Below, in pieces: positions 5,736 through 61,035 of a stretch of DNA of 64,000 nucleotides. Position 1 is the first letter of the stretch, and each line of letters begins with the position of its first letter. The notes under the pieces are model-generated. The model was given only the letters and a program-made list of their open reading frames with translations, made no database searches and had not been told where the DNA came from. A program made the translations under genes and the position numbers. The stretch comes from an uncultured Acidobacteriota bacterium. GTDB taxonomy: Bacteria > Acidobacteriota > Vicinamibacteria > Vicinamibacterales > UBA2999. The stretch is taken from contig CAWFCS010000004.1 of NCBI GenBank assembly GCA_963814395.1, positions 20,862 through 84,861 on the forward strand, written 5' to 3'.

Positions 5736-6662
5736 ATGCACCATTGGCAGCACACGATGTGGATCATGACGCTGGTGGCGGCCGCGGGGGCGGGCATGCC
5801 GGCGGCCGAGGGGCGCAAGCTGAACGTGGCCCATCGCGGCGCCTCGGCCTACGCGCCCGAGCACACGCTCGAGGCCTACGACCTGGCCATCACCCAAGGC
5901 GCCGACTTCGTGGAACAGGATTTGGCGGTCACGAAGGACGGCGTGCTCATCTGCCTGCACGACCCCTCGCTCGAGCGGACGACCGATGTCGAAGAGCGCT
6001 TTCCCGATCGCTCCAGCACGGTCACCGTCGAGGGACGCCCGCGCCGGGTGTGGCTGGCCAACGACTTCACGCTCGCCGAGATCAAGACGCTCGACGCCGG
6101 CTCCTGGTTCGCCGCCAAGTACGCCGGCGCGCGCGTGCCGACCTTCGACGAGGCGGTGGCGCGCATCCGCGGCAAGGCGGGCCTCTACCCTGAGCTGAAG
6201 ACGCCGGAGATCTACGAGGGCCGGAATGTCGACTTCGTGGCGCTGGTCGAGCAGGCGCTCGACCGCCTTGCGCTGCGCGGTGCGAAGGCCGACGCGAAGA
6301 CGCCCGTGATTCTGCAGACGTTCGGCGCCTCCACGGCCCGGGCGCTCGCCGCCCGCCGCATCGGCGTGCCGGTGGTGTTGCTCATTGGCGGCGTGCCGCC
6401 CACGTGGGATCCGCGCGCCGCCGTCGCCGAGTGGAAGGGCGTCGTGGCTGGCTTCGGGCCGGCCAAGGGGATCGTGACGAAGCACCCGGAGTTCGTGCGC
6501 CTGGCTCACGAGGCGGGCCTCACGGTCACGCCCTACACGTTCACGACGAAGACCCCGGCGGAGCAGACCTCGGTGGCCGCCGAGATGGAGCACTTCCTCT
6601 ACATACTCGGGGTGGACGCGGTGTTCACCGACAACCCCGACAAGTTCCCGCGCCGCCCCTAG
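5736..6662 (+). CDS. glycerophosphodiester phosphodiesterase (GlpQ/UgpQ family), secreted
   Basis: GDPD motifs NVAHRGASAYAPEHTLEAY, FVEQDLAVTKDGVLICLHD and YPELK. AAGGAG lies 7 nt before the ATG at 5736. N-terminal signal-like segment. Confidence 0.85.
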   Translation: MHHWQHTMWIMTLVAAAGAGMPAAEGRKLNVAHRGASAYAPEHTLEAYDLAITQGADFVEQDLAVTKDGVLICLHDPSLERTTDVEERFPDRSSTVTVEGRPRRVWLANDFTLAEIKTLDAGSWFAAKYAGARVPTFDEAVARIRGKAGLYPELKTPEIYEGRNVDFVALVEQALDRLALRGAKADAKTPVILQTFGASTARALAARRIGVPVVLLIGGVPPTWDPRAAVAEWKGVVAGFGPAKGIVTKHPEFVRLAHEAGLTVTPYTFTTKTPAEQTSVAAEMEHFLYILGVDAVFTDNPDKFPRRP

Positions 6663-7075: not shown

Positions 7076-7087
7076 GGAGGGATTGTA

Positions 7088-7264
7088 GGGGGACTGGGGG
7101 CTGGAGGCTAGGGGCTGGGGTGGGTCTCAAGAAAGACGAAGGGCCGGAAGCAAATGCTCCCGGCCCTTCGTTGTGAGTGTCGAACCTGGGTGTCACACCG
7201 TCACCGTGGCGTGCCTTGGTCCCCAGTCCCGAGTCCCTAGTCCCGCCGCGCCCTAAGGCGCGGC
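7088..7264. repeat. composite palindromic intergenic element: G-rich heptamer array, conserved hairpin, C-rich heptamer array, small hairpin
   Basis: 7088-7124 reads GGGGACT GGGGGCT GGAGGCT AGGGGCT GGGGTGG. 7136-7171 is a 12-bp perfect stem (ACGAAGGGCCGG/CCGGCCCTTCGT). 7218-7244 is the complement of GGGACTA GGGACTC GGGACTG GGGACC. 7245-7264 is GCCGCGCC-ctaa-GGCGCGGC. The core matches the element at 58116-58267. Confidence 0.8.
7125..7171 (-). terminator. rho-independent terminator downstream of pnp
   Basis: A 12-bp GC-rich perfect stem at 7136-7147 / 7160-7171. On the minus strand it is followed by CTTTCTT (complement of 7125-7135). Confidence 0.6.
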
Positions 7265-7267
7265 TGA

Positions 7268-10897: not shown

Positions 10898-11892
10898 GCG
10901 CCGTCCGCGTCGGCTACGGCGCGTTCGAGCGCCCGCAGCACGTCGGCGCGCACCACGTCGAGCGGGCCCGCGCAGCGCGCACGCCGCGGCATTGCGGTGG
11001 CCACCGCCACCGCGTTCGCGCGCGATGCTGCCGATGTCGACCGCACCCTTCGAGCGCAGGCTCACGCGCCAGTGCTCGGGCGACTCGGCCTGCTTGAAGA
11101 AGGCCACGGCGCAGAGCGTCGTTCACCGACAGCGGGAAAGTTGATCAGCCCGTCGGTGTCGTCGTAGCTGCCGCCGGCGGCCGCGGCCATCTCCGGCGTG
11201 ACGGCCAGCAGCGCGATCCGCCCGTGCGCGTCGACGATCATCTCCGAGAGCACGCGGCCGAAGAGATGCACCCGCGCCATGCGGTTGCTGTCGTAGTGCG
11301 TGCGCGCAATCCACACCGGGTCGGCGCCGGCCTCGACGCAGCGCGCGGCGATGTCGAAGGTGCGCGCCGTGATGTGCGAGAAGTGGAACGACCCGGTGTC
11401 GGTCAGGATGGCGAGATAGAGGTGCGTCGCGATGGCCGGCGTGAGCGGCACGCCGAGGGCGACGATCAGGTCGTAGGCCAGCTCGCCGCAGGCCGCTGCC
11501 GATTCATCGACCCAGTTCTCGGCGCCGTAGCGCGCGTTGCCGGGATGGTGGTCGACATTGAGCACGGGCGAGCGGTCGAGGCCGCTGACTCCGGTGCGCG
11601 CCAGCTCGCTGCACTCCATGATCACGGCCGCGTCGAAGGTCTCGCTGACGTCGCGCGTGACCCACACGCCGTCCACCTCGGGAAAGGGGAGGAGCGCGGG
11701 TGGCGGCGTGTCGCACATCACCATGCGGGCGTCCTTGCCGAGGGCGCGCAGGGCCAGCACGAGTGCCATGCCCGAGCCGATGGCGTCGCCGTCGGGCCGT
11801 TCGTGTGAGGACACGACGATGCGGGTCGCGGCGTGGAGCCGCGCCACGATGGCGTCGAGCTCCGGCCGGTCAGCGCGCCGGGTCGGCATCAT
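10894..11892 (-). pseudogene. nrnA: DHH/DHHA1 phosphoesterase (NrnA-like oligoribonuclease/pAp phosphatase), three +1 frameshifts
   Basis: DHH motifs SHERPDGDAIGS, NVDHHPGN and DTGSFHF. After breaks near 11134 and 11110 the sequence reads [39 protein letters not shown] (DHHA1). After a break near 10965 it reads [22 protein letters not shown] then stop. Length is 3n. Confidence 0.8.
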
Positions 11893-12352
11893 CGGCGGGC
11901 GCCGCCGGAGCGCCGGCGGGGACTGGATCGGACGGGGCCGGATCGGCCGGCAGCGGATCGGATGGAGCCGCGTTCGCCCCGCCGGCCGTCTCACCGCGCG
12001 CGGCATCCGCCTCGTGAATCTCGTGCAGAATCTCTTCTACGCGCTGGTGCGCCGCCAGGCCTTCGTCGTAGTGGAACGCCACCTCGGGCACCCGCCGCAG
12101 CGTGAGCCGCGTGGCCAGCACGTGGCGCACGAAGGGGGCCGCGCGCTGCAGCGCCTTGGTCGTGCGCTTCTTCTCGGCGGCGTCGCCGAACAGCGTCCAG
12201 TAGACGCGCGCGAGCGACAAATCGGGCGAGACCTTGACCCGGCTGACGGTCACGAGTCCCACGCCCGGGTCGGCGATGTCGGTGGCCAGGATCTGGCTCA
12301 CCTCTTCGCGCAGTTGTTCCGCGATCCGCTCGATGCGATGGGTGAGGGGCAT
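11870..12352 (-). CDS. rbfA: ribosome-binding factor A
   Basis: RIERIAEQLREEVSQIL..DPGVGLVTVSRVKVSPDLSLARVYWT is typical RbfA. It carries an acidic Pro/Ala-rich C-terminal extension. Confidence 0.9.
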   Translation of the reverse strand: MPLTHRIERIAEQLREEVSQILATDIADPGVGLVTVSRVKVSPDLSLARVYWTLFGDAAEKKRTTKALQRAAPFVRHVLATRLTLRRVPEVAFHYDEGLAAHQRVEEILHEIHEADAARGETAGGANAAPSDPLPADPAPSDPVPAGAPAAPADDADPAR

Positions 12353-12361
12353 GTCTCTATT

Positions 12362-12386
12362 CTAGGGGCTAGGGCTGGTCCCCAGC
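12362..12386. repeat. short heptamer-type tract (two units) with a mini hairpin between infB and rbfA
   Basis: The plus strand reads CTAGGGGCTAGGGCTGGTCCCCAGC. It holds two CTAG-containing units and a GCTGG-tcc-CCAGC hairpin. The C-rich version is on the mRNA-sense (minus) strand. Confidence 0.4.
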
Positions 12387-17155: not shown

Positions 17156-17204
17156 TGGATTTCCCAGATCAGCACCGGACCCTTGAGTTTAGCATCCTGC
17201 TGGC

Positions 17205-18687
17205 TTACAGGTCCAGGGGCCTAGCGACCAGATCGTAGCCGCTGGGCCCCGACGATTTCCACGTCGAGGAACTGGCCGGGCCGCAAGACCGCCGGATCGG
17301 CCTCGGTCAGGAAGACCTGCGGGTCGATTTCGGGCGCCTGCCCTGAGAGCCGGCCGGTGAAGACCCACTCGTGTTCCGGGGACGGGCCGTCGACGACCAG
17401 ACGCGCACGGGCGCCGACGCGGGCCTTCTGGCGGGCGGCGACCAGCTTCTTCTGCGGTGGCCATCACCTTGCGCTGGCGGCGCGCCTTCTCCGCGGCGGG
17501 CACGTCGTCGGCCAGGTCGAAGGCCGAGGTGTCTTCCTCGTGGCTGTAGGTGAAGACGCCGACGTGGTCGAAGCCCACCGCCGTGATGAAGGCCAGCAGT
17601 TCCTGCACGTCGGCCTCGGTCTCGCCCGGGAAGCCGACGATGAAGGTGGTGCGCAGCGTGACGTCGGGCATCTTCGCCCGGATGTTGCCGAGCAGCCGCT
17701 CGTACGAGGCGCGCGTGCCCGGACGTTTCATGCGCTTCAGCACCGCGTCGGAGGCGTGCTGCAACGGCAGATCGATGTAGCGCACGACCTTCGTGCTGGC
17801 GGCGATGGCGTCGATGGTGGCGTCGGTGATGGTGGTGGGATAGAGATAGAGCAACCGCACCCATTCGATGCCGTCCACGCCGTCGAGCGCCCGGATCAAA
17901 CGCGGCAGGGCATCGCGCTCCTTGCGGTCGATGCCGTAGAAGGTGGTGTCCTGCGAGACCAGCAGCAGTTCCTTGACGCCTCTGGCGGCGAGCATGTGCG
18001 CCTCGTCGACCACCGACTCGATGGTGCGGCTGCGGTAGTGACCGCGCATCTTGGGGATCACGCAGAACGCGCACTTGTAGTCGCAGCCCTCGGCGATCTT
18101 GACGTAGGCGTAGTGGCCGGGGGTGGCCAGACGGCGTGGCGTGGTGGCGTCGTAGAGATAGGTGGGGAGATCCAGGCCGAAGGCAGGGACGAGGGACTGG
18201 GGACTGGGGACTGGGGCGGACTGTCCCGCTGCGGACGCTGTGGCGTGCTCAGCTGTCCAGGAGCACCATCGCTGCGCTCGGCGCTTTCGGATCGCGCTTG
18301 TAGAAGGTCAGGGGCGAGGCGCCGGCTGGCGCGCGCAGCGGTCGAGCCGGGCTGGATGGCCTCGAGGATGTTGGGCACGTCGCCGGTGCCGAGCAGGGCA
18401 TCGATCTCGGGGATTTCCTGCTGCAGTGTGTCGCGGTAGCGCTCGGCCAGGCAGCCGGTGACCACCAGGCGTCCGCCAGTGGCCTTCTTGCGCTCCGCCA
18501 TCTCGAGAATCGTGTCGATCGACTCCTGCTTGGCGCGGTCGATGAAGGCGCAGGTGTTCACGATCACCACGTCGGCGCCGTCGGCGTCGGTCGTGATCTC
18601 GTGCCCGGCCTGCTCGGCCATGCCCAACATCACCTCGGAATCGACGAGGTTCTTGGGGCAGCCGAGGGAGACGAAGCCGATCTTCAC
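17205..18687 (-). pseudogene. rimO: ribosomal protein S12 methylthiotransferase RimO, four +1 frameshifts, with a heptamer array inside the interdomain linker
   Basis: N-terminal MTTase domain [30 protein letters not shown]. Radical-SAM core [28 protein letters not shown]-like end QKKLVAARQ..LVVDGPSPEHEWVFTGRLSGQAPEIDP..GYDLVARPLDL then stop. Breaks sit near 17241 and 17457, plus two within 18255-18365. Length is 3n+1. Confidence 0.85.
18185..18219. repeat. heptamer array inside the rimO coding sequence
   Basis: Plus strand reads GGGACGA GGGACTG GGGACTG GGGACTG GGGCGGA. The sense (minus) strand is C-rich. In the frame that continues into the radical-SAM core it reads [26 protein letters not shown]. 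It contains no CTAG. Confidence 0.85.
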
Positions 18688-18691
18688 GGCA

Positions 18692-18719
18692 GGGACCAGG
18701 GACTGGGGACCGGGGACCA
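18692..18719. repeat. heptamer array 5 nt upstream of the rimO start codon
   Basis: Plus strand reads GGGACCA GGGACTG GGGACCG GGGACCA. Two GCTAGC palindromes at 18742-18747 and 18756-18761, 8 nt apart, follow it. Confidence 0.8.
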
Positions 18720-18837
18720 GACCCCAAGGACGCGGCGGGAGGCTAGCGGTTGGCTGCTAGCGGCGCAAGACATCCCAATACTGTACACCCCCACGGCCGC
18801 CCGTGCCTGTCGTGCTATACATGGCGCGCTCGTTGCC

Positions 18838-33491: not shown

Positions 33492-33531
33492 GGGACTAGG
33501 GACTAGGGACTGGGGACTAGGGACTAGGGAC
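33492..33531. repeat. heptamer tandem array (5.7 units) between the dehydratase gene and glgP
   Basis: Plus strand reads GGGACTA GGGACTA GGGACTG GGGACTA GGGACTA GGGAC. The TAG stop of the upstream gene (33524-33526) lies in unit 5. The array ends 10 nt before the glgP ATG. Confidence 0.9.
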
Positions 33532-34507
33532 GCGGGCTCGCCGGGCAGGCGCCCACGAGTGTCGCGAATCTGGAGAGGTCGATGTTGCCGCCGGACACGA
33601 TGGCCACGACCTGGCCGGGTCCGGCGCGACCGGACAGCGCAGCGGCCACGGCACAGGCCGCGGCGCCTTCGATGATGACGTGCGCGCGCTCGGCGGTGAG
33701 CTTCATGGCCGCGGCGGCGTCGTCGAGCGTGACCACGAGCGAGCCGGCAATCGCGCCGTGCAGCAGCGGCCACATCGACGGGAGCACCGAACGCCCGCCG
33801 GCGCCGTCGACGAACGACGTGCGCCACGCCTCGAACCGCTGCGGCGATCCGGCGGCCAGCGAGAGCGCCAGCGGCGACGCGGTTTCCGGTTCGGCGGCCA
33901 CGACGCGCACGTCGGGACGCCGGGCGTTCATGACGGCAGCGATGCCGGCCAGCAGGCCACCCCCGCCGATGGCGGCGACGACCGTGGAGACGCCGGGCAG
34001 GTCGTCGAGAATCTCGAGGCCAGCCGTGGCGTTACCGGCGATGAAGGCGTCGTCGTCGAACGGGTGCACGAAGTAGCCGTGCATGCGCTCCGAGGCGCGC
34101 GTTTCCACCGTCTTCCAGCACTCGTCGTAGGTGGCGCGCACGATCGTGGCGCCGAGCCGCTCGATCGCCCGCACCTTCGTCTCGGGCGCCGTGTCCATGA
34201 CCATCACGGAGCAGGGGGCGCCCACGGACCGCGCCGCGAAGGCCACGCCCTGCCCGGCGTTGCCCGCGCTCACCGTCCACACGCCGTCCTGCAGGTCGCG
34301 CGGACCGAGCTGGCGCACGGCATTGAAGGCCCCGCGCAGCTTGAACGATCCGATGGGCTGCAGGCACTCGAGCTTGAGGAAGACCTCGACCGGCTCGCCT
34401 TCAGGGGTCCGCACCGGCACGTCGAGCCGCACGAGCGGGGTGCGCACGGCCGCCGCATAGATGGCCGCGGCTGCGTCTTCTACCGCGCTGATGGGAATGT
34501 GCCGCAT
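33524..34507 (-). CDS. PLP-dependent threonine/serine dehydratase family enzyme
   Basis: LKLECLQPIGSFKLRGAFN holds the PLP-lysine motif. SAGNAGQGVAFAA and GGGGLLAGIA form the glycine-rich phosphate loop. Start taken at MRHIPISAV. Confidence 0.8.
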   Translation of the reverse strand: MRHIPISAVEDAAAAIYAAAVRTPLVRLDVPVRTPEGEPVEVFLKLECLQPIGSFKLRGAFNAVRQLGPRDLQDGVWTVSAGNAGQGVAFAARSVGAPCSVMVMDTAPETKVRAIERLGATIVRATYDECWKTVETRASERMHGYFVHPFDDDAFIAGNATAGLEILDDLPGVSTVVAAIGGGGLLAGIAAVMNARRPDVRVVAAEPETASPLALSLAAGSPQRFEAWRTSFVDGAGGRSVLPSMWPLLHGAIAGSLVVTLDDAAAAMKLTAERAHVIIEGAAACAVAAALSGRAGPGQVVAIVSGGNIDLSRFATLVGACPASPRP

Positions 34508-34589
34508 CGTGACGACCGCAGATCGTATCACGCCGTCCCGCGCATCGCTGGCGCGGCCGCGCGTAGAATGCTCGTGCCTGGAGGCCGAC

Positions 34590-35758
34590 ATGACGAGCGC
34601 GAATGCGAAGAGACTGCTGCTGTTGTGTGCCTTGAGCACAACGCTCGTGTGGAGCGCCGCGCCGCTGGCGCAGCCGGCCGCTGCGCGTCCGCGCGCGCGT
34701 GAGCTGGGGCTCGCGCCAGGGGTGTTTGCGCCGGGGCCGGGCAACGCCATCACCGACGTGGACGGCGTGCGCGTGGGTCACGTCACGCTCACGACCGGCG
34801 ACGCGGTTCGCACCGGCGTCACCGCCGTCCTGCCGCATCCCGGCAATCTGTTCCAGCAGAAGGTGGCGGGCGCGGTGTTCGTCGGCAACGCCTTCGGCAA
34901 ACTGGCCGGTTCCACTCAGGTGGACGAACTCGGCACGATCGAGTCGCCGATCGTGCTCACCAACACCCTGGCGGTAGGCGCCGGCGTGGAAGGCGTGGTG
35001 CGGTGGACGCTGGCGCAGCCCGGCAACGCCGAGCGTGCGCTCGGTGAACGCGCTGGTCGGCGAAACCAACGACGGCGGCCTGCAACGACATCCGCGGTCT
35101 GCACGTGCGGCCTGAGCACGTGCTGCAGGCCATCGCCGCCGCGCGCGGCGGCGCCGTGGAGGAGGGCAGCGTGGGCGCGGGCACCGGCACACAGGCGTTC
35201 GGCTGGAAGGGCGGCATCGGCACGTCGTCCCGCCGCCTGCCCGCGACCTACGGCGGCTTCACGGTGGGCGTGCTCGTGCAGAGCAACTTCGGCGGCGTGC
35301 TCACCATGGGGGGCGCGCCCGTGGGCAAGGAACTCGGCCGCTACAGCTACGCGCCGGCCGGGCGCGGCGATGCCGGCGACGGCTCGTGCATGATCGTCGT
35401 GGCCACCGACGCGCCGCTCGACGCCCGCGACCTGAAGCGCCTCGCTGCGCGGGCCGTGTTCGGCCTGGCGCGCACCGGGTCGTCGTTCAGCAACGGCAGC
35501 GGCGACTTCGCCATTGCGTTCACGACCCATCTGTCGCAGCGGGTGGCGTTCGGCGCGGCCGCGCCGGTGACGCGCACGGCGCTGCCCACCGACGGCGTGT
35601 CGCCGCTCTTCCAGGCGGCGCTCGAGGCCACCGAAGAAGCGGTCTACAACTCGCTGCTGCGCGCCACCACGGTCACCGGCAACGGCACGACGACCGAGGC
35701 GCTGCCGATCGAGCGCGTGCGCGAGATTCTGCGCAAGTACAACGCCGGCAGTCGCTGA
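34590..35758 (+). pseudogene. DmpA/peptidase S58 (P1) family aminopeptidase, two +1 frameshifts near 35040 and 35083
   Basis: A signal peptide is followed by NAITDVDGVRVGHVTL..RTGVTAVLP. After the breaks the sequence continues SVNALVGETNDGGL then NDIRGLHVRPEHV..GSVGAGTGTQAFGWKGGIGTSS (self-processing nucleophile region). Length is 3n+2. Confidence 0.8.
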
Positions 35759-50863: not shown

Positions 50864-51964
<1,101 letters not shown>

Positions 51965-56430: not shown

Positions 56431-58080
56431 ATGAACAAGGAAATGATCATCTCGACCAATGGCCACGAAACCCGCGTGGCCATTCTCGAGGACGACCTGC
56501 TCGCCGAGGTGTTCATCGAGCGCGAGCGCAATCGCGGCGTGGTCGGCAACGTCTACAAGGGCCGGGTCTCGAAGGTGCTGCCCGGCATGCAGTCGGCGTT
56601 CGTCGACATCGGCCTCGAGCGCGACGGCTTCCTCTACGTGTCGGACGTGGTCAACACGATGGAGGAGTTCGAGCGCCTGAGCGGCGACGACGACGACGAG
56701 GAGACGCCGGCGGTGGCCGCCGAGTCGGCCATCGGCAGCGGCGCGGCCGACGTGGCGGCGGCGAGCGCGCCGGCGCCGTCGGGCGGACAGAGCGGCGGCC
56801 GGGGCCGTGGCGGGCGCGGCGGGCGCGGCGGCGAGCGCGACAAGAACGCGCCCGAGCCGAAGATCGAAGACCTGGTCAAGGAAGGCCAGGACATCATCGT
56901 GCAGGTGGCCAAGGAGCCGCTCGGCACCAAGGGCGCGCGCCTCACCTCGCACGTCACGATGCCCGGCCGCTTCCTGGTGTTCATGCCCACGGTGGACCAC
57001 GTCGGCGTGTCGCGCAAGATCGCGACGCGCGAGGAACGCAACCGGCTGCGCGGCATCGTCAAGGAGTTCCGCGACCAGCACCACTTCGGCGGCGGCGTGA
57101 TCATCCGCACCGCGGCCGAGGGCCGGCCCAAGGAAGACATCGTCTCGGACCTGCAGTACTTCCACCGCGTGTGGACCGAGATGCGTCACAAGTCCGAGAC
57201 CAGCCGCGCGCCGGCCACGGTGTTCCGCGAAGCCAGTCTCGTGGCCAAGCTGCTGCGCGACCTGCTGACCGACGACTACATCGCGATCCGCATCGACGAC
57301 CCGCGCGAACACGCGCGCATCATCGAGCTGCTCAACCGCATCATGCCGGCGATGTCGCCGCGGGTGCGGCTGCACGACAAGCCGTATCCGATCTTCGAGG
57401 AATACGGCGTGCAGGCCGAGCTCGACAAGGCGCTCAAGAGCAAGGTGTGGCTGAAGTCGGGCGGCTCGATCGTGATCAACCAGACCGAGGCGCTGGTCGC
57501 CATCGACGTGAACACCGGCCGCTACGTGGGCAAGAAGACCGCCGGCCGGCTCGAGGACACGATCATCAAGACCAACCTCGAGGCGGCCAAGGAGATCGTG
57601 CGGCAGATGCGCCTGCGCGACCTGGGCGGCATCATCGTGCTCGACTTCATCGACATGGAAGAGAAGAAGAACCGGCAGAAGGTCTTCCAGACGGTGGAGC
57701 ACGAGCTGCGGCGCGACCGCTCGCCGTCAAAGGCGCTGCAGGTCTCGGACTTCGGCCTGGTGATCGTGACGCGCAAGCGCGTCAAGCAGAGCCTCGAGCG
57801 CACCCTCACCGAGCCGTGCCCGTATTGCTCCGGGATCGGCACCATCAAGTCGAGCTCGACGGTGTGCTACGAGATTCTCACCGAGGTGAAGAAGGTGGGA
57901 CCGGACCTGGATGGCCTGGGCGTGCTGCTGCGGGTCAACCCCGACATCGCCCGCGCGCTCAAGGACGAAGAGCGCGGCGTGCTGCGCGACTTGAAGCAGA
58001 TGCTCGGCAAGGACGTGATCGTGAAGGCCGACGTGCAGCTGCACCACGAGCAGTTCGACGTGATGTCGATCGGCGGGTAG
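56431..58080 (+). CDS. rng: ribonuclease E/G family endoribonuclease (Rng-like)
   Basis: S1 domain GNVYKGRVSKVLPGMQSAFVDIG. Other motifs are KEPLGTKGARLTSHVTMPGRFLVFMP, VAIDVNTG, GGIIVLDFIDM and a Zn-link CPYCSGIG. It carries an acidic plus RGG-rich insertion at about 56653-56865. Confidence 0.9.
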   Translation: MNKEMIISTNGHETRVAILEDDLLAEVFIERERNRGVVGNVYKGRVSKVLPGMQSAFVDIGLERDGFLYVSDVVNTMEEFERLSGDDDDEETPAVAAESAIGSGAADVAAASAPAPSGGQSGGRGRGGRGGRGGERDKNAPEPKIEDLVKEGQDIIVQVAKEPLGTKGARLTSHVTMPGRFLVFMPTVDHVGVSRKIATREERNRLRGIVKEFRDQHHFGGGVIIRTAAEGRPKEDIVSDLQYFHRVWTEMRHKSETSRAPATVFREASLVAKLLRDLLTDDYIAIRIDDPREHARIIELLNRIMPAMSPRVRLHDKPYPIFEEYGVQAELDKALKSKVWLKSGGSIVINQTEALVAIDVNTGRYVGKKTAGRLEDTIIKTNLEAAKEIVRQMRLRDLGGIIVLDFIDMEEKKNRQKVFQTVEHELRRDRSPSKALQVSDFGLVIVTRKRVKQSLERTLTEPCPYCSGIGTIKSSSTVCYEILTEVKKVGPDLDGLGVLLRVNPDIARALKDEERGVLRDLKQMLGKDVIVKADVQLHHEQFDVMSIGG

Positions 58081-58115
58081 GCGCTGCGCGCCGAGGCGCC
58101 GCATCGACAGGTCTT

Positions 58116-58267
58116 GGGACTGGGGGCTGGGGGCGAGGGCCTGCCAGAAACGGCGAAGGGCCGGGCGATTCGCCCGGCCCTTCGCTTTGTACGGTGTGGC
58201 GGCTGGACTGGTACGTTACTAGCCCCAGCCCCCAGCCCCCAGCCCCCAGTCCCTAGAACCTAGAACC
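58116..58267. repeat. composite palindromic intergenic element: 19-bp perfect inverted heptamer arrays flanking a 15-bp hairpin
   Basis: GGGACTGGGGGCTGGGGGC at 58116-58134 is the exact reverse complement of 58235-58253. The central hairpin is at 58153-58185. The right array extends at 7-nt period through AGTCCCT AGAACCT AGAACCT (to 58267) and contains the receptor gene's TAG stop. Confidence 0.85.
58153..58190. terminator. bidirectional rho-independent terminator between convergent rng and the TonB-dependent receptor gene
   Basis: Perfect 15-bp stem GCGAAGGGCCGGGCG-att-CGCCCGGCCCTTCGC. It is followed by TTTGT on the plus strand and by CGTTTCT on the minus strand. Confidence 0.7.
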
Positions 58268-61035
58268 TGAAAATCGCCGACACCCGGTAGCGGCGGGGCA
58301 GCTGGAACGAGCCGCGCGCCGTGGCCTTGCCGAAGTTGTCGACGGCCGTCGCGCACGCTGCGGTGGCCGACGTACCGCAGAACGCGGTGTTGTTCGAGAT
58401 GATCTTGGCTTCGCGGTTGGTGACGTTGAACGCCTCGCCCTTGAAGCCGACCTGCGTGCGCGCTGGACCGCGCCAGGTCACTTCGACCGAGCCGTCGACA
58501 TACCATTCGATGCCGTCGACCGGGTCGGAACCGCGTTCGTTGTAGAAGTAGACGGCGGTCGATCCCTGGTTCAGCAGCGTGCCGGGCAGCAGCACGTTGA
58601 CCGAGCGCTGCTTCTCGTAGCGGCGCTTCGAGATCGCTTCTGCCAGGGCGCCCACGCTCAGGTTGATCGGGCCGATCGGCCGCACGTAGGCGCCGTTCAG
58701 TTTGAAGTTGTGGGGCCGGTCGTAGATCGGCCGGCCGTACTTGTTGTCGCCGTTCTGCACCTCGGCGCAGGGAATCACGCCGTTGACCCCCACCGTGGTG
58801 TCGACCGTGGTGCGGCACTGTGCGTCGAGGTAGTCGCCCAGGCTGGTGAAGGTCTGGTCGAAGTGGTTGCCCTCGGTGCGCGAGTAGGTGTAGCTCGCCG
58901 CCGCGTTCCAGTTGTTCGAGAAGCGCTTCTCGAAGGTGGCCTGCACGCCGCGATACTGACGCTCGGCCGCGTCGTAGTTCACGACCTGACGGTTGATCGA
59001 GTTGTCGGCGTTGAAGGTGCGGACGTCGTCGATCAGATCCTTCCAGTCGCGCGTGATGAAGCGCACGCCGGCAGCCAGGCTGCGGCCGAACTGCCGCTGC
59101 ACACCCACCGTGAACTCGTCCAGGTAGGACGGCGTGAGGTCGGCGTTGGGGCGGAAGGTCGAGCCGCCGATGCGCACCTGGTTCTGCAGGGCGTAGGCGC
59201 TGCCGTTCCACGCGTAGTTGTCGTAGTCGGCCTGCTGCGGCACGCCGGCGAAGGCATCCGAGAAGCTCTGGATGATGCCGGCGTAATAGCGGCCGAAACT
59301 GCCGAGCACGATGGTCTTGCCGTCCCCGGTCACGTTGTAGCTGGCCGACACACGCGGCGCGAGCACGGTCGTGTCGACCGTGTCGGCGGCGAGGTCGCTC
59401 GTGCCGACCTGCTTCTCGACGCGTACGCCCGCCTCGACGAAGAGCCGGCTGGTGACGTCGAACTTGTCGCGCAGGTAGAACGCGTAGTTCTTGCCTTCCG
59501 ACGTGGACGCGCCGGAGAGGTAGTCGCGCCGGAACTGCGGCACCAGGGTGCCGGTCGCCTGATTGAACGACTCGGCGATGTAGTACTGCTTGTTCGGGTA
59601 GTCGAACTGCGAACCCGATTCCACCGTCTGGAAGTCGAACCCCGCCTTCACGTTGTGACTACGCGAGCCGAGACTGAAGAACCAGGTGCTGGCCAGGTTG
59701 GCCTGCTGGCGCGGACGATTCGTGAAGCCGTCGAAGGTGGCGCCGTTGTAGTTGCGGTTGTCCGCCTGGGAGAACACCGGGGCATTCGAGCCAATCCGGC
59801 CGGCCTCGAAGGTGGTGACGTCGAGCCGCGAGGTGTAGGTGCCCACCGCTGCTTCCACCGCCCAGTTGTCGCTGAGCACGCCGTTCCACTGCCCGGCCCA
59901 CGAATCCGAGCTCTGGTTCTGCGAGGTCAGGGCTTCCAGTTCGGCCGCGGCCGAGGCCGCCGGCCAGTAGTCGATGACGAAGCCAGTCGTTGGGCGAGCG
60001 GAAGTACTTCACCCAGGCCGAGTGGCCGTCGCTGATCTGCACGGTGGCGCGCACGTTGAGGAAGTTGTTCTCGGTGCTCTGCTGGTAGTTCTCGGGGATC
60101 GGGCCGCTGGTCTGGCGCTGCGGCGTGGTGTTGGTGGCGTACTCGTGCGCGGCGAAGAACCACGCCCGGTCCTTGAGCAGCGGGCCGCCCAGGGTGGTGG
60201 CGTAGACGGGGTTGACCTTGTCGAACTTGGCCCGTTCGAGCGACACGCCTGTCACTTCGCTCTTGGTCGAGTTCTGCTTGTCCCAGTTGTCGTTGATGAC
60301 GATGTATTTGGCCGAGCCCTCGAAGCGGTTGGTGCCCGACTTGGTGATGATGTTCACGATCGCGCCCTGGCCGCGGCCGTATTCGACCGACGCCGCCGAG
60401 GTCGACACCGACACTTCCTGGATGGCTTCGAAGTTGAGGTTCGCGCCGAAGGTGCCGGTCGTCGGGTCGGTGGTGTCGACCGAGTCCATGATGAAGAGGT
60501 TGCTGCTCGTGAGCGCGCCGAGCGCGTTCACGTTGCCCGTGCCCACCACGCCTGGCGTCACGCCGATGAGGTTCTGGTAGCTGCGGCCGACCGGCAGCCG
60601 CTCGAATTCCTCGCGGCGCACGCGCGTGTTGGCGGTCACGTTGGTGAGGTCGACGATCGGCGTCTCGCCGGTGACGGTCACCGAGTCGGTGAGGCCGCCG
60701 ACCTTGAGCGCGAACGGCACGTTCGTGGTCTTCTCGGTCTCGACGAGGTTGTCGGTGAGCCGCAGTGGCGCGAAGCCGGCCAGGTTCGCTTCGACGGTGT
60801 AGTTGCCGATCGACACGGCGGCAAATGCGTAGCGGCCGTTCTCGTCGGTGACCACCGACCGCACGACGCCGCGTTCCTGGCTCGTGAGCGTGACGGTGAC
60901 GCCGGGCAGCACACCGCCGCTGACGTCTTGCACGACGCCCGCGACCGTGCCGGTCTGGGCGGGTTGGGCCCAGGCCATCGGGGCCAGGGCGATGGTCAAC
61001 AAGGCCGCAACCCACACGGATAACAGTCGAGACAT
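58260..61035 (-). pseudogene. TonB-dependent receptor, Oar-like (carboxypeptidase-regulatory-like N-domain), one +1 frameshift near 59982
   Basis: A signal peptide is followed by GTVAGVVQDVSGGVLPGVTVTLT..TDENGRYAF (CarbopepD_reg fold), a plug region, a long beta-barrel and a C-terminal aromatic end (AIFRF). ORFs 59659..61035 and 58260..59879 join across GACTGG-C-TTCGTC. Confidence 0.8.

Follow-up and report, generated by a model that had tools for sequence, protein, structure and literature searches.

Knowledge of tandem heptamer repeats goes back to 1990 for cyanobacteria and to 2015 for Xanthomonas. The cyanobacterial short tandemly repeated repetitive (STRR) sequences reported by Mazel et al. 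in 1990 are said to include STRR1, with the unit CCCCA(A/G)T. In Xanthomonas (GGGAATC) and Nostoc (GGGGA(C/T)T), heptamer repeats were characterised as tandem 7-nucleotide (nt) units with a tract of three to five G, four units being preferred, and the oligonucleotides (GGGACTG)3GGG and (GGGGACT)4 gave circular dichroism (CD) spectra of the quadruplex type (Rehm et al. 2015, PMC4692102). According to the same paper, the G-rich strand lies on the coding strand at most 50 bp past a stop codon or else on the non-coding strand, upstream of a gene, some repeats overlap stop codons, pairs are always convergent (70-75 per Xanthomonas genome, few in Nostoc), and positions are conserved among relatives with variable length and sequence. 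The word 'terminator' never occurs there, yet transcript ends were examined for a role in transcription termination. Here we describe a 152-nt element (positions 58116-58267 of a 64-kb stretch of DNA, hereafter the window) from a genome of the Vicinamibacterales (Acidobacteriota), situated between the convergent ends of an rng-like gene and a gene for an outer-membrane protein of the TonB-dependent receptor type. The element nests a hairpin between two heptamer arrays, and it is probably a conserved bidirectional terminator whose flanks bear arrays driven by replication slippage.

The two arms of the element contain a perfect inverted repeat, GGGACTGGGGGCTGGGGGC at 58116-58134 being the exact reverse complement of 58235-58253, as an earlier note on this DNA had read from the sequence. 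With mismatches allowed, the repeat grows to 32 nt at 88% complementarity (58112-58143 and 58226-58257). Apart from those at 58116-58253, the window holds no perfect inverted repeat that is 14 nt or longer and whose halves lie at most 200 nt apart; shuffled windows held 0-2 each, usually none. Between the arms lies the G+C-rich core hairpin (58153-58185), whose stem of 15 bp and 3-nt loop had also been proposed in that note and were confirmed by folding (dG -33.9 kcal/mol); its stem base, AAGGGCCGG..CCGGCCCTT, recurs in orthologous sites and in a second hairpin near pnp. Folding in both orientations, a check that had been suggested, gave -131.0 kcal/mol for the plus strand and -127.5 kcal/mol for the minus strand of the 182-nt spacer, with z of about -9 for both against dinucleotide shuffles. 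An Rfam scan of 57800-58600 returned sub-threshold matches to microRNA precursors and VA-RNA-like families only, which are typical of any long hairpin and were rejected.

Both arms are period-7 arrays by Tandem Repeats Finder (58116-58134, 2.7 copies; 58223-58253, 4.4 copies with 95% matches; 58252-58268, 2.4 copies with 100% matches), which bears out their earlier description as microsatellite-like. The left arm (58116-58139, plus strand) lies on the strand that encodes rng, starts 35 nt past its stop and consists of the heptamers GGGACTG, GGGGCTG and GGGGCGA followed by GGG, its four G-runs forming a canonical G-quadruplex (G4) motif. The right arm (58219-58268) is G-rich on the minus strand, where G4 motifs cluster at 58223-58253; read on the plus strand it runs CTAG, CCCCAG, three CCCCCAG units, TCCCTAG, AACCTAG and AACCT. 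A single 7-nt register, with CAG/TAG unit ends at 58228, 58235, 58242, 58249, 58256 and 58263, continues through this arm into the last codons and the stop of the receptor gene, again as had been claimed. The minus-strand open reading frame (ORF) terminates ...SAIFRF* via AGGTTCTAG, its Arg-Phe-stop (AGG TTC TAG) occupying 58260-58268; an exact 7-nt duplicate, GTTCTAG, comes after it, the unit AGGTTCT being tandemly duplicated at 58255-58268.

These arrays match the described class of G-rich heptamer repeats, of the cyanobacterial STRR type. They consist of tandem 7-nt units (GGGACTG/GGGGCTG) with G tracts of at least three, at least 14 nt in total, and have at least four G-tracts, which make up canonical motifs (G3+N1-7, four times; judged by sequence only) at 58116-58139 on the plus strand and 58223-58253 on the minus strand. 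Their G strand follows the rng stop by the 35 nt given above on one side and overlaps the receptor stop on the other. Pairs are exclusively convergent (G-rich, then C-rich) at the rng locus, at a second locus near 7 kb and at all related sites, and position as well as single or paired type is conserved (rng site in L003 and L127-L130, pnp site in L135, mreB-mreC spacer). Shifted in register, GGGACTG equals the Nostoc unit GGGGACT; it is equally the reverse complement of CAGTCCC, which is an STRR1 unit (CCCCAGT) in another register, and like STRR1 it forms dispersed intergenic tandem arrays, here within the window. The host differs from that of the STRR sequences in being a 70% G+C acidobacterium, and its arrays are short (3-6 units) and often arranged as inverted pairs around hairpins. 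It also belongs to a group outside the 2015 study; moreover, the pair described here brackets a strong, conserved hairpin of the terminator type, and the unit at the orthologous site drifts to forms free of G3 (GGCTAGC, GGCTGGC) while the arms stay complementary, a comparison absent from PMC4692102. What is new is thus the occurrence of the class in a new host lineage, together with an informative comparative series.

That series was assembled from the spacers in the neighbourhoods of RNase G homologues and from a scan of metagenomes for the 3' end of rng; the scan yielded five loci, including one further composite (L127), which is insufficient for strain-level variation in copy number. The core hairpin is kept in the rng 3' spacer at seven sites (the window, L003, L127, L128, L129, L130 and L131), and over eight sequences four of its 13 stem pairs are changed on both sides, that is, by compensatory changes. 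The arms change from genome to genome: their units are GGGACTA/GGGACCA in L128, GGCTAGC in L129, GGCTGGC in L130 and GGGTCTC with CCCGAGA in L127 and L003, and L131 has the core hairpin without heptamers, with CGCGGCCGCGG on both sides. All heptamer-bearing rng sites nonetheless share the period of 7, a CTNG(S)G core, the G-richer arm on the respective coding strand and complementarity of the arms within the site. At one orthologous site the unit drifts, even losing its G3 runs, and period, orientation, arm complementarity and central hairpin persist. In each of the eight sites, even L131, the fold of lowest energy brings the outer flanks together as a duplex around the core (z from -3.5 to -9.4, mononucleotide shuffles). 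The two arms of an rng site match each other and not the array in the mreB-mreC spacer of the same genome, so that arm matching is specific to the site.

The same pattern is seen at pnp, where L135 has a composite with the same heptamers and compensatory changes in the stem (GAAGAGCC/GGCTCTTC) and nothing but the core hairpin is present in L134. Since the core is conserved at a given site while the arms change, the sites have diverged in place rather than received a mobile unit. Relatives that lack the receptor gene (L002, L123-L125 and probably L001) all lack the composite. The RNase G of L001 is 99% identical to that of the window, and its DNA is wholly diverged from a few bases past the stop onward (6064-6239, the contig ending 175 nt on), which marks the rng 3' end as a synteny or recombination breakpoint. 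In L126, three tandem 9-mers (CGCAGATTA) stand 3' of rng where other relatives have heptamer arrays.

Within the window, which has about 70% G+C, eight period-7 arrays were found (7089-7120, 7219-7245, 18193-18216, 18690-18720, 33492-33531, 51913-51931 and the two arms at 58116-58268) as against 0-1 arrays at each of the periods 5, 8 and 10; the neighbourhoods of relatives hold 0-3 period-7 arrays per 12-22 kb. The unit is GGGRCTR in all eight window arrays except the ambiguous CCCYGGG array at 51913-51931, and the 13-mer GGGGGCTGGGGGC (up to two mismatches) occurs 19 times where 6.7 occurrences are expected. All six intergenic arrays scored in the window obey the placement rule of the class for the G strand. 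The two strongest hairpins of the window (15 pairs, all others having at most 11) are both flanked by convergent arrays, one at 58116-58268 and the other at 7089-7245. The latter belongs to a second composite (7076-7267) downstream of pnp, the gene of polynucleotide phosphorylase (PNPase), made up of a G-rich array, a 15-bp hairpin and a C-rich array. On the minus strand the order is pnp stop, G-rich array, hairpin (ACGAAGGGCCGG...CCGGCCCTTCGT plus CTTTCTT), C-rich array and next gene. The 9-nt stem base AAGGGCCGG/CCGGCCCTT is identical in the two hairpins, these being its two sites in the window; the composites as wholes agree in 114 of 184 columns (62% identity), chiefly within the arrays and at the base of the stem, and the core hairpin sequence of the rng site is unique within the window. 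Lone arrays of the GGGRCTR unit without any hairpin are present as well.

A wider view of orientation came from a scan of a genome collection for three CTRGGGR units, which returned at least 119 loci in many phyla; its taxon counts are not quantitative, and the following figures hold among the matches listed. Many of these are from Nostocales (Nostoc, Calothrix and Anabaena contigs). Xanthomonadaceae are represented too, as are Acidobacteriota, where the class is common, and, by this pattern, Gemmatimonadota, Planctomycetota, Chloroflexota and others. Neighbouring arrays of opposite type form 31 convergent pairs and no divergent one, the convergent-only rule thereby holding across phyla. By admittedly crude gene calls, 113 of 154 arrays have a gene boundary nearer to the 5' side of their G-rich strand and 40 nearer to the opposite side, the median distances being 26.5 nt and 138.5 nt, respectively. 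The boundary at the 5' side of the G strand is a same-strand stop in 99 cases and an opposite-strand start in 55. This orientation rule is the most general constraint on heptamer arrays.

The reading of the rng-receptor element as a terminator with slippage-driven arrays at its flanks probably accounts best for these observations. The core hairpin would serve both convergent transcripts as an intrinsic terminator or as a stem-loop protecting their 3' ends. Each flank carries a simple-sequence repeat with a G-rich 7-nt unit, placed on the coding strand closely behind the stop of its own gene, which makes the pair convergent. Replication slippage would let the arrays grow, shrink and switch unit in place, and a single slippage step would have duplicated the last 7 nt of the receptor gene (AGGTTCT) with the protein unaltered. 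Complementarity of the arms could persist through hairpin-templated repair, that is, quasi-palindrome template switching, or through selection for pairing, both of which require that the hairpin form; read-through RNA or extruded DNA would then adopt one long compound hairpin around the core. Like known bidirectional intrinsic terminators, the element has a G+C-rich perfect stem at a conserved site between convergent stops, with an A-rich and a T-rich side (AGAAACG ... TTTGT), and its hairpin is conserved with four compensatory pairs. It differs from them in that its U-tracts have only three consecutive U and in its nested microsatellite outer arms, which are non-canonical. The bidirectional terminator and the T-rich runs on either side of the hairpin that the earlier note had claimed are hence upheld in part. 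Termination in both directions is plausible from the conserved core with its compensatory changes. Short T tracts are indeed present, as TTTGTACGGT for the rng transcript (58186-58195, plus strand) and CGTTTCTGGC for the receptor transcript (58143-58152, minus strand), and consist of TTTGT and TTTCT only.

Several points weigh against this reading. The consensus terminator scan did not call the 58153 hairpin, whose U-tracts are short; its tails TTTGTACG and GTTTCTGG have four T in eight, below the scan threshold of five in eight. Short U-tracts are common in high-G+C bacteria; the terminator reading is kept because of core conservation and not because of the scan. Efficient termination at the core would leave the distal C-rich arm out of the RNA, so that arm pairing would matter only to read-through RNA or to DNA. 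In other phyla, about one third of the convergent pairs among the matches listed have non-complementary arms on visual inspection, from which it follows that pairing is no general requirement of the heptamer class. The related sites compared number only about eight, several of them not independent. Finally, both the receptor gene and rimO are frameshifted in the source assembly, which suggests homopolymer errors, and G- or C-run lengths in the arrays may consequently be off by one base; this leaves some uncertainty over the arrays, against which their perfect 7-nt periodicity speaks. On the related question of T runs after the hairpin, these reach T4-T5 at two array-free sites (L131 11700-11770 and L134 3710-3755) and at most T3 on that side at array-bearing sites (the window, L128-L130 and L135), a weak trend in a small sample of two array-free against about eight array-bearing sites.

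Two other accounts concern the arms and deserve to be weighed together. Selection of the arms for forming DNA or RNA G4 in each 3' untranslated region, with hairpin and pairing secondary and with a role such as stalling RNA polymerase or blocking exonucleases, is possible but on balance unlikely. Each arm carries the canonical (G3+ N1-7)x4 motif on the coding strand of its gene, the window as a whole is poor in such motifs (11 clusters, where shuffles gave about 28) and yet six of the 11 are heptamer arrays, and the G4-type CD spectra and four-unit preference reported for the class (PMC4692102) point the same way. Against this, the arms of L129 and L130 are nearly without G3 runs and keep period, position, orientation and complementarity, which argues that G4 potential alone is not what is conserved; L131 is without any heptamers, and in the computed folds pairing with the complementary arm gives a highly stable duplex that would compete. 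The G-rich intergenic motifs of a 2016 paper (PMC5100583), for which hairpin and quadruplex are reported as alternatives, resemble the arms in these respects; as described there they are conserved single motifs, unlike the tandem heptamer arrays in convergent pairs found here. The arrays might instead be a neutral by-product, slippage-prone microsatellites gathering in the few non-coding bases at gene ends without a function of their own, with quasi-palindrome template switching at the terminator copying one arm onto the other. Fast turnover of unit and copy number among relatives, the absence of arrays from L131, L002 and L134, a 7-nt duplication at the last receptor codons without effect on the protein and the over-representation of heptamer simple repeats in bacteria (discussed in PMC4692102) would all be expected of it. 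We regard this too as rather unlikely, given the strict orientation (31 convergent to no divergent pairs) and the bias of the G-strand 5' end towards gene boundaries (113 to 40), both among the matches listed, the latter making slippage alone an insufficient explanation. At one site, besides, different genomes preserve the period of 7 together with the CTNG(S)G core as the remainder of the unit varies, and most canonical G4 motifs of the window lie within these arrays despite their general depletion.

The likeness to MITEs (miniature inverted-repeat transposable elements) or to repetitive extragenic palindromes (REP) drawn in the earlier note did not survive the comparison, and insertion of a 152-nt non-autonomous unit of the MITE or REP/bacterial interspersed mosaic element (BIME) type between the two genes is very improbable. 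Terminal inverted repeats around an internal palindrome, an intergenic position at gene 3' ends, the lack of coding capacity and a second composite of like build at 7089-7245 with the identical 9-nt stem base do recall such elements, which can also stabilise upstream mRNA. No target-site duplication was found at the rng-locus composite, however: no direct repeat stands beside the arms (flanks CGACAGG... and ...ACCTAGAACC), and the inverted repeat decays outward. Both arms are tandem arrays, and they differ in length (about three units against five to seven), the 64-kb window holds no near-identical copy of the whole element, and its two composites are too dissimilar (the 62% noted above) for a multi-copy family. 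The empty sites for which a search among relatives had been suggested were likewise not found in those compared, relatives with the same gene pair keeping the core and differing only in the arms; the core stands at the same site with other arms or none, at pnp as at rng, and the arms change in place. REP/BIME units are conserved imperfect palindromes of 20-40 nt with a set tetranucleotide at the 5' end, recognised by a RAYT transposase and numbering in the hundreds; beyond the 9-nt stem base at its two sites there is no conserved unit of this kind in the window, no search for a RAYT gene having been made. Single GGGRCTR arrays occur without a hairpin, and no association of the heptamer class with mobile elements was found in the 2015 study (PMC4692102).

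A further proposal, which we consider doubtful, would make the heptamer arrays orientation-specific transcriptional gatekeepers, which would insulate genes throughout the genome from pervasive as well as antisense transcription. As the G strand runs 5' to 3' away from the nearest gene, a polymerase leaving that gene would write a G-rich tract, and one entering it from outside, by convergent antisense transcription or by upstream sense read-through, would write a C-rich, G-poor tract. The C-rich tract would be a Rho-loading site and also the partner that closes the long hairpin with the G-rich arm, and the arrays would back up terminators with poor U-tracts. The argument from orientation is made because of the 31:0 convergent pairs and the 113:40 proximity bias among the matches listed. 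If the proposal were true, it would give a function to STRR-type repeats, unexplained since 1990; the orthologous series offers concrete constructs for asking whether the arms assist termination or insulation.

The convergent flanks named in the earlier note hold for both genes. The rng-like gene of the RNase E/G family (56431..58080, plus strand, stop TAG at 58078-58080) matches Pfam RNase_E_G (5e-95) and RNase_E_G_Thio. A look-up of its exact product gave no match, and homologues were used in its place; the best are 88-99% identical, are named ribonuclease G or Rne/Rng and come from Vicinamibacterales or Acidobacteria. The receptor-type gene (58260..61035, minus strand; Pfam CarboxypepD_reg, Plug and the outer-membrane barrel OMP_b-brl_4) is split into two overlapping frames, 59659..61035 and 58260..59879. 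Its C-terminal 539 amino acids (aa) are 75% identical, in a gap-free alignment, to residues 391-929 of an orthologue that is intact at 929 aa; the orthologues are intact, at 929 aa, in L128 and L130 and also split in L003 and L129. A homopolymer error in long reads is the likely cause of the split; otherwise the gene would be a recent pseudogene. The C-terminus SAIFRF is conserved, and relatives stop with TGA and lack the 7-nt AGGTTCT duplication.

In rimO (17189-18687, minus strand), which is broken into three frames, a (GGGACTG)3.4 array at 18193-18216 sits within the Pro-rich linker. The linker region is read straight through in the relative P0126, and the notion of a naturally split or array-interrupted rimO was for that reason rejected in favour of an in-frame Pro-rich linker with assembly frameshifts. 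The best 120 homologues of the N-domain are all at most 199 aa long, probably as a result of contig ends and of frameshifts at the homopolymer-rich linker. In practical terms, heptamer arrays occupy stop codons and linkers, and in long-read assemblies they fall where gene calls are frameshifted.

Other arrays show further relations to genes. The (GGGACTA)n array at 33492-33531 has 5.7 units, the majority with the palindrome CTAG, and hence offers TAG stops to either strand in several frames; it provides the stop of the gene 33524..34753 (minus strand) and adjoins the start of the next gene. CTAG is rare across the window (28 observed, 178 expected from base composition), and about 11 of the 28 lie in or beside heptamer arrays. 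The idea that CTAG units are six-frame stop cassettes was set aside, as the dominant units, CTGGGGG and CTGGGGA, contain no stop. The mreB-mreC spacer holds a heptamer array in five genomes (window 51909-51940, L003 5533-5559, L128 5560-5582, L129 5540-5566 and L130 5470-5496), varying in unit (CCCYGGG, GCGGCTA, TCCCTAG, CCCGGGA) and in which strand is G-rich. A single heptamer flavour per genome was considered and rejected, the units of L003, L129 and L130 differing between their mreB-mreC and rng sites.

At 12359-12385, a short way upstream of where the minus-strand gene 11870..12352 starts, lies a miniature pair, CTAGGGGCTAGGGCTGG followed directly by TCCCCAGC. An Acidobacteriota metagenome-assembled genome (L032, 4740-5200) has a higher-order tandem repeat of heptamer sub-arrays (GGGGCTA, GAGAACG and others) whose copies are about 125-260 nt apart. 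Beside the pnp composite, TACAAT stands 6 nt upstream of the ATG of a cupredoxin-like gene in three genomes (window 7076-7088, L134 3805-3817 and L135 3886-3898), at the start of which no Shine-Dalgarno sequence is apparent in the three genomes compared. Placed directly after the C-rich array, this motif may be the promoter of a leaderless transcript.

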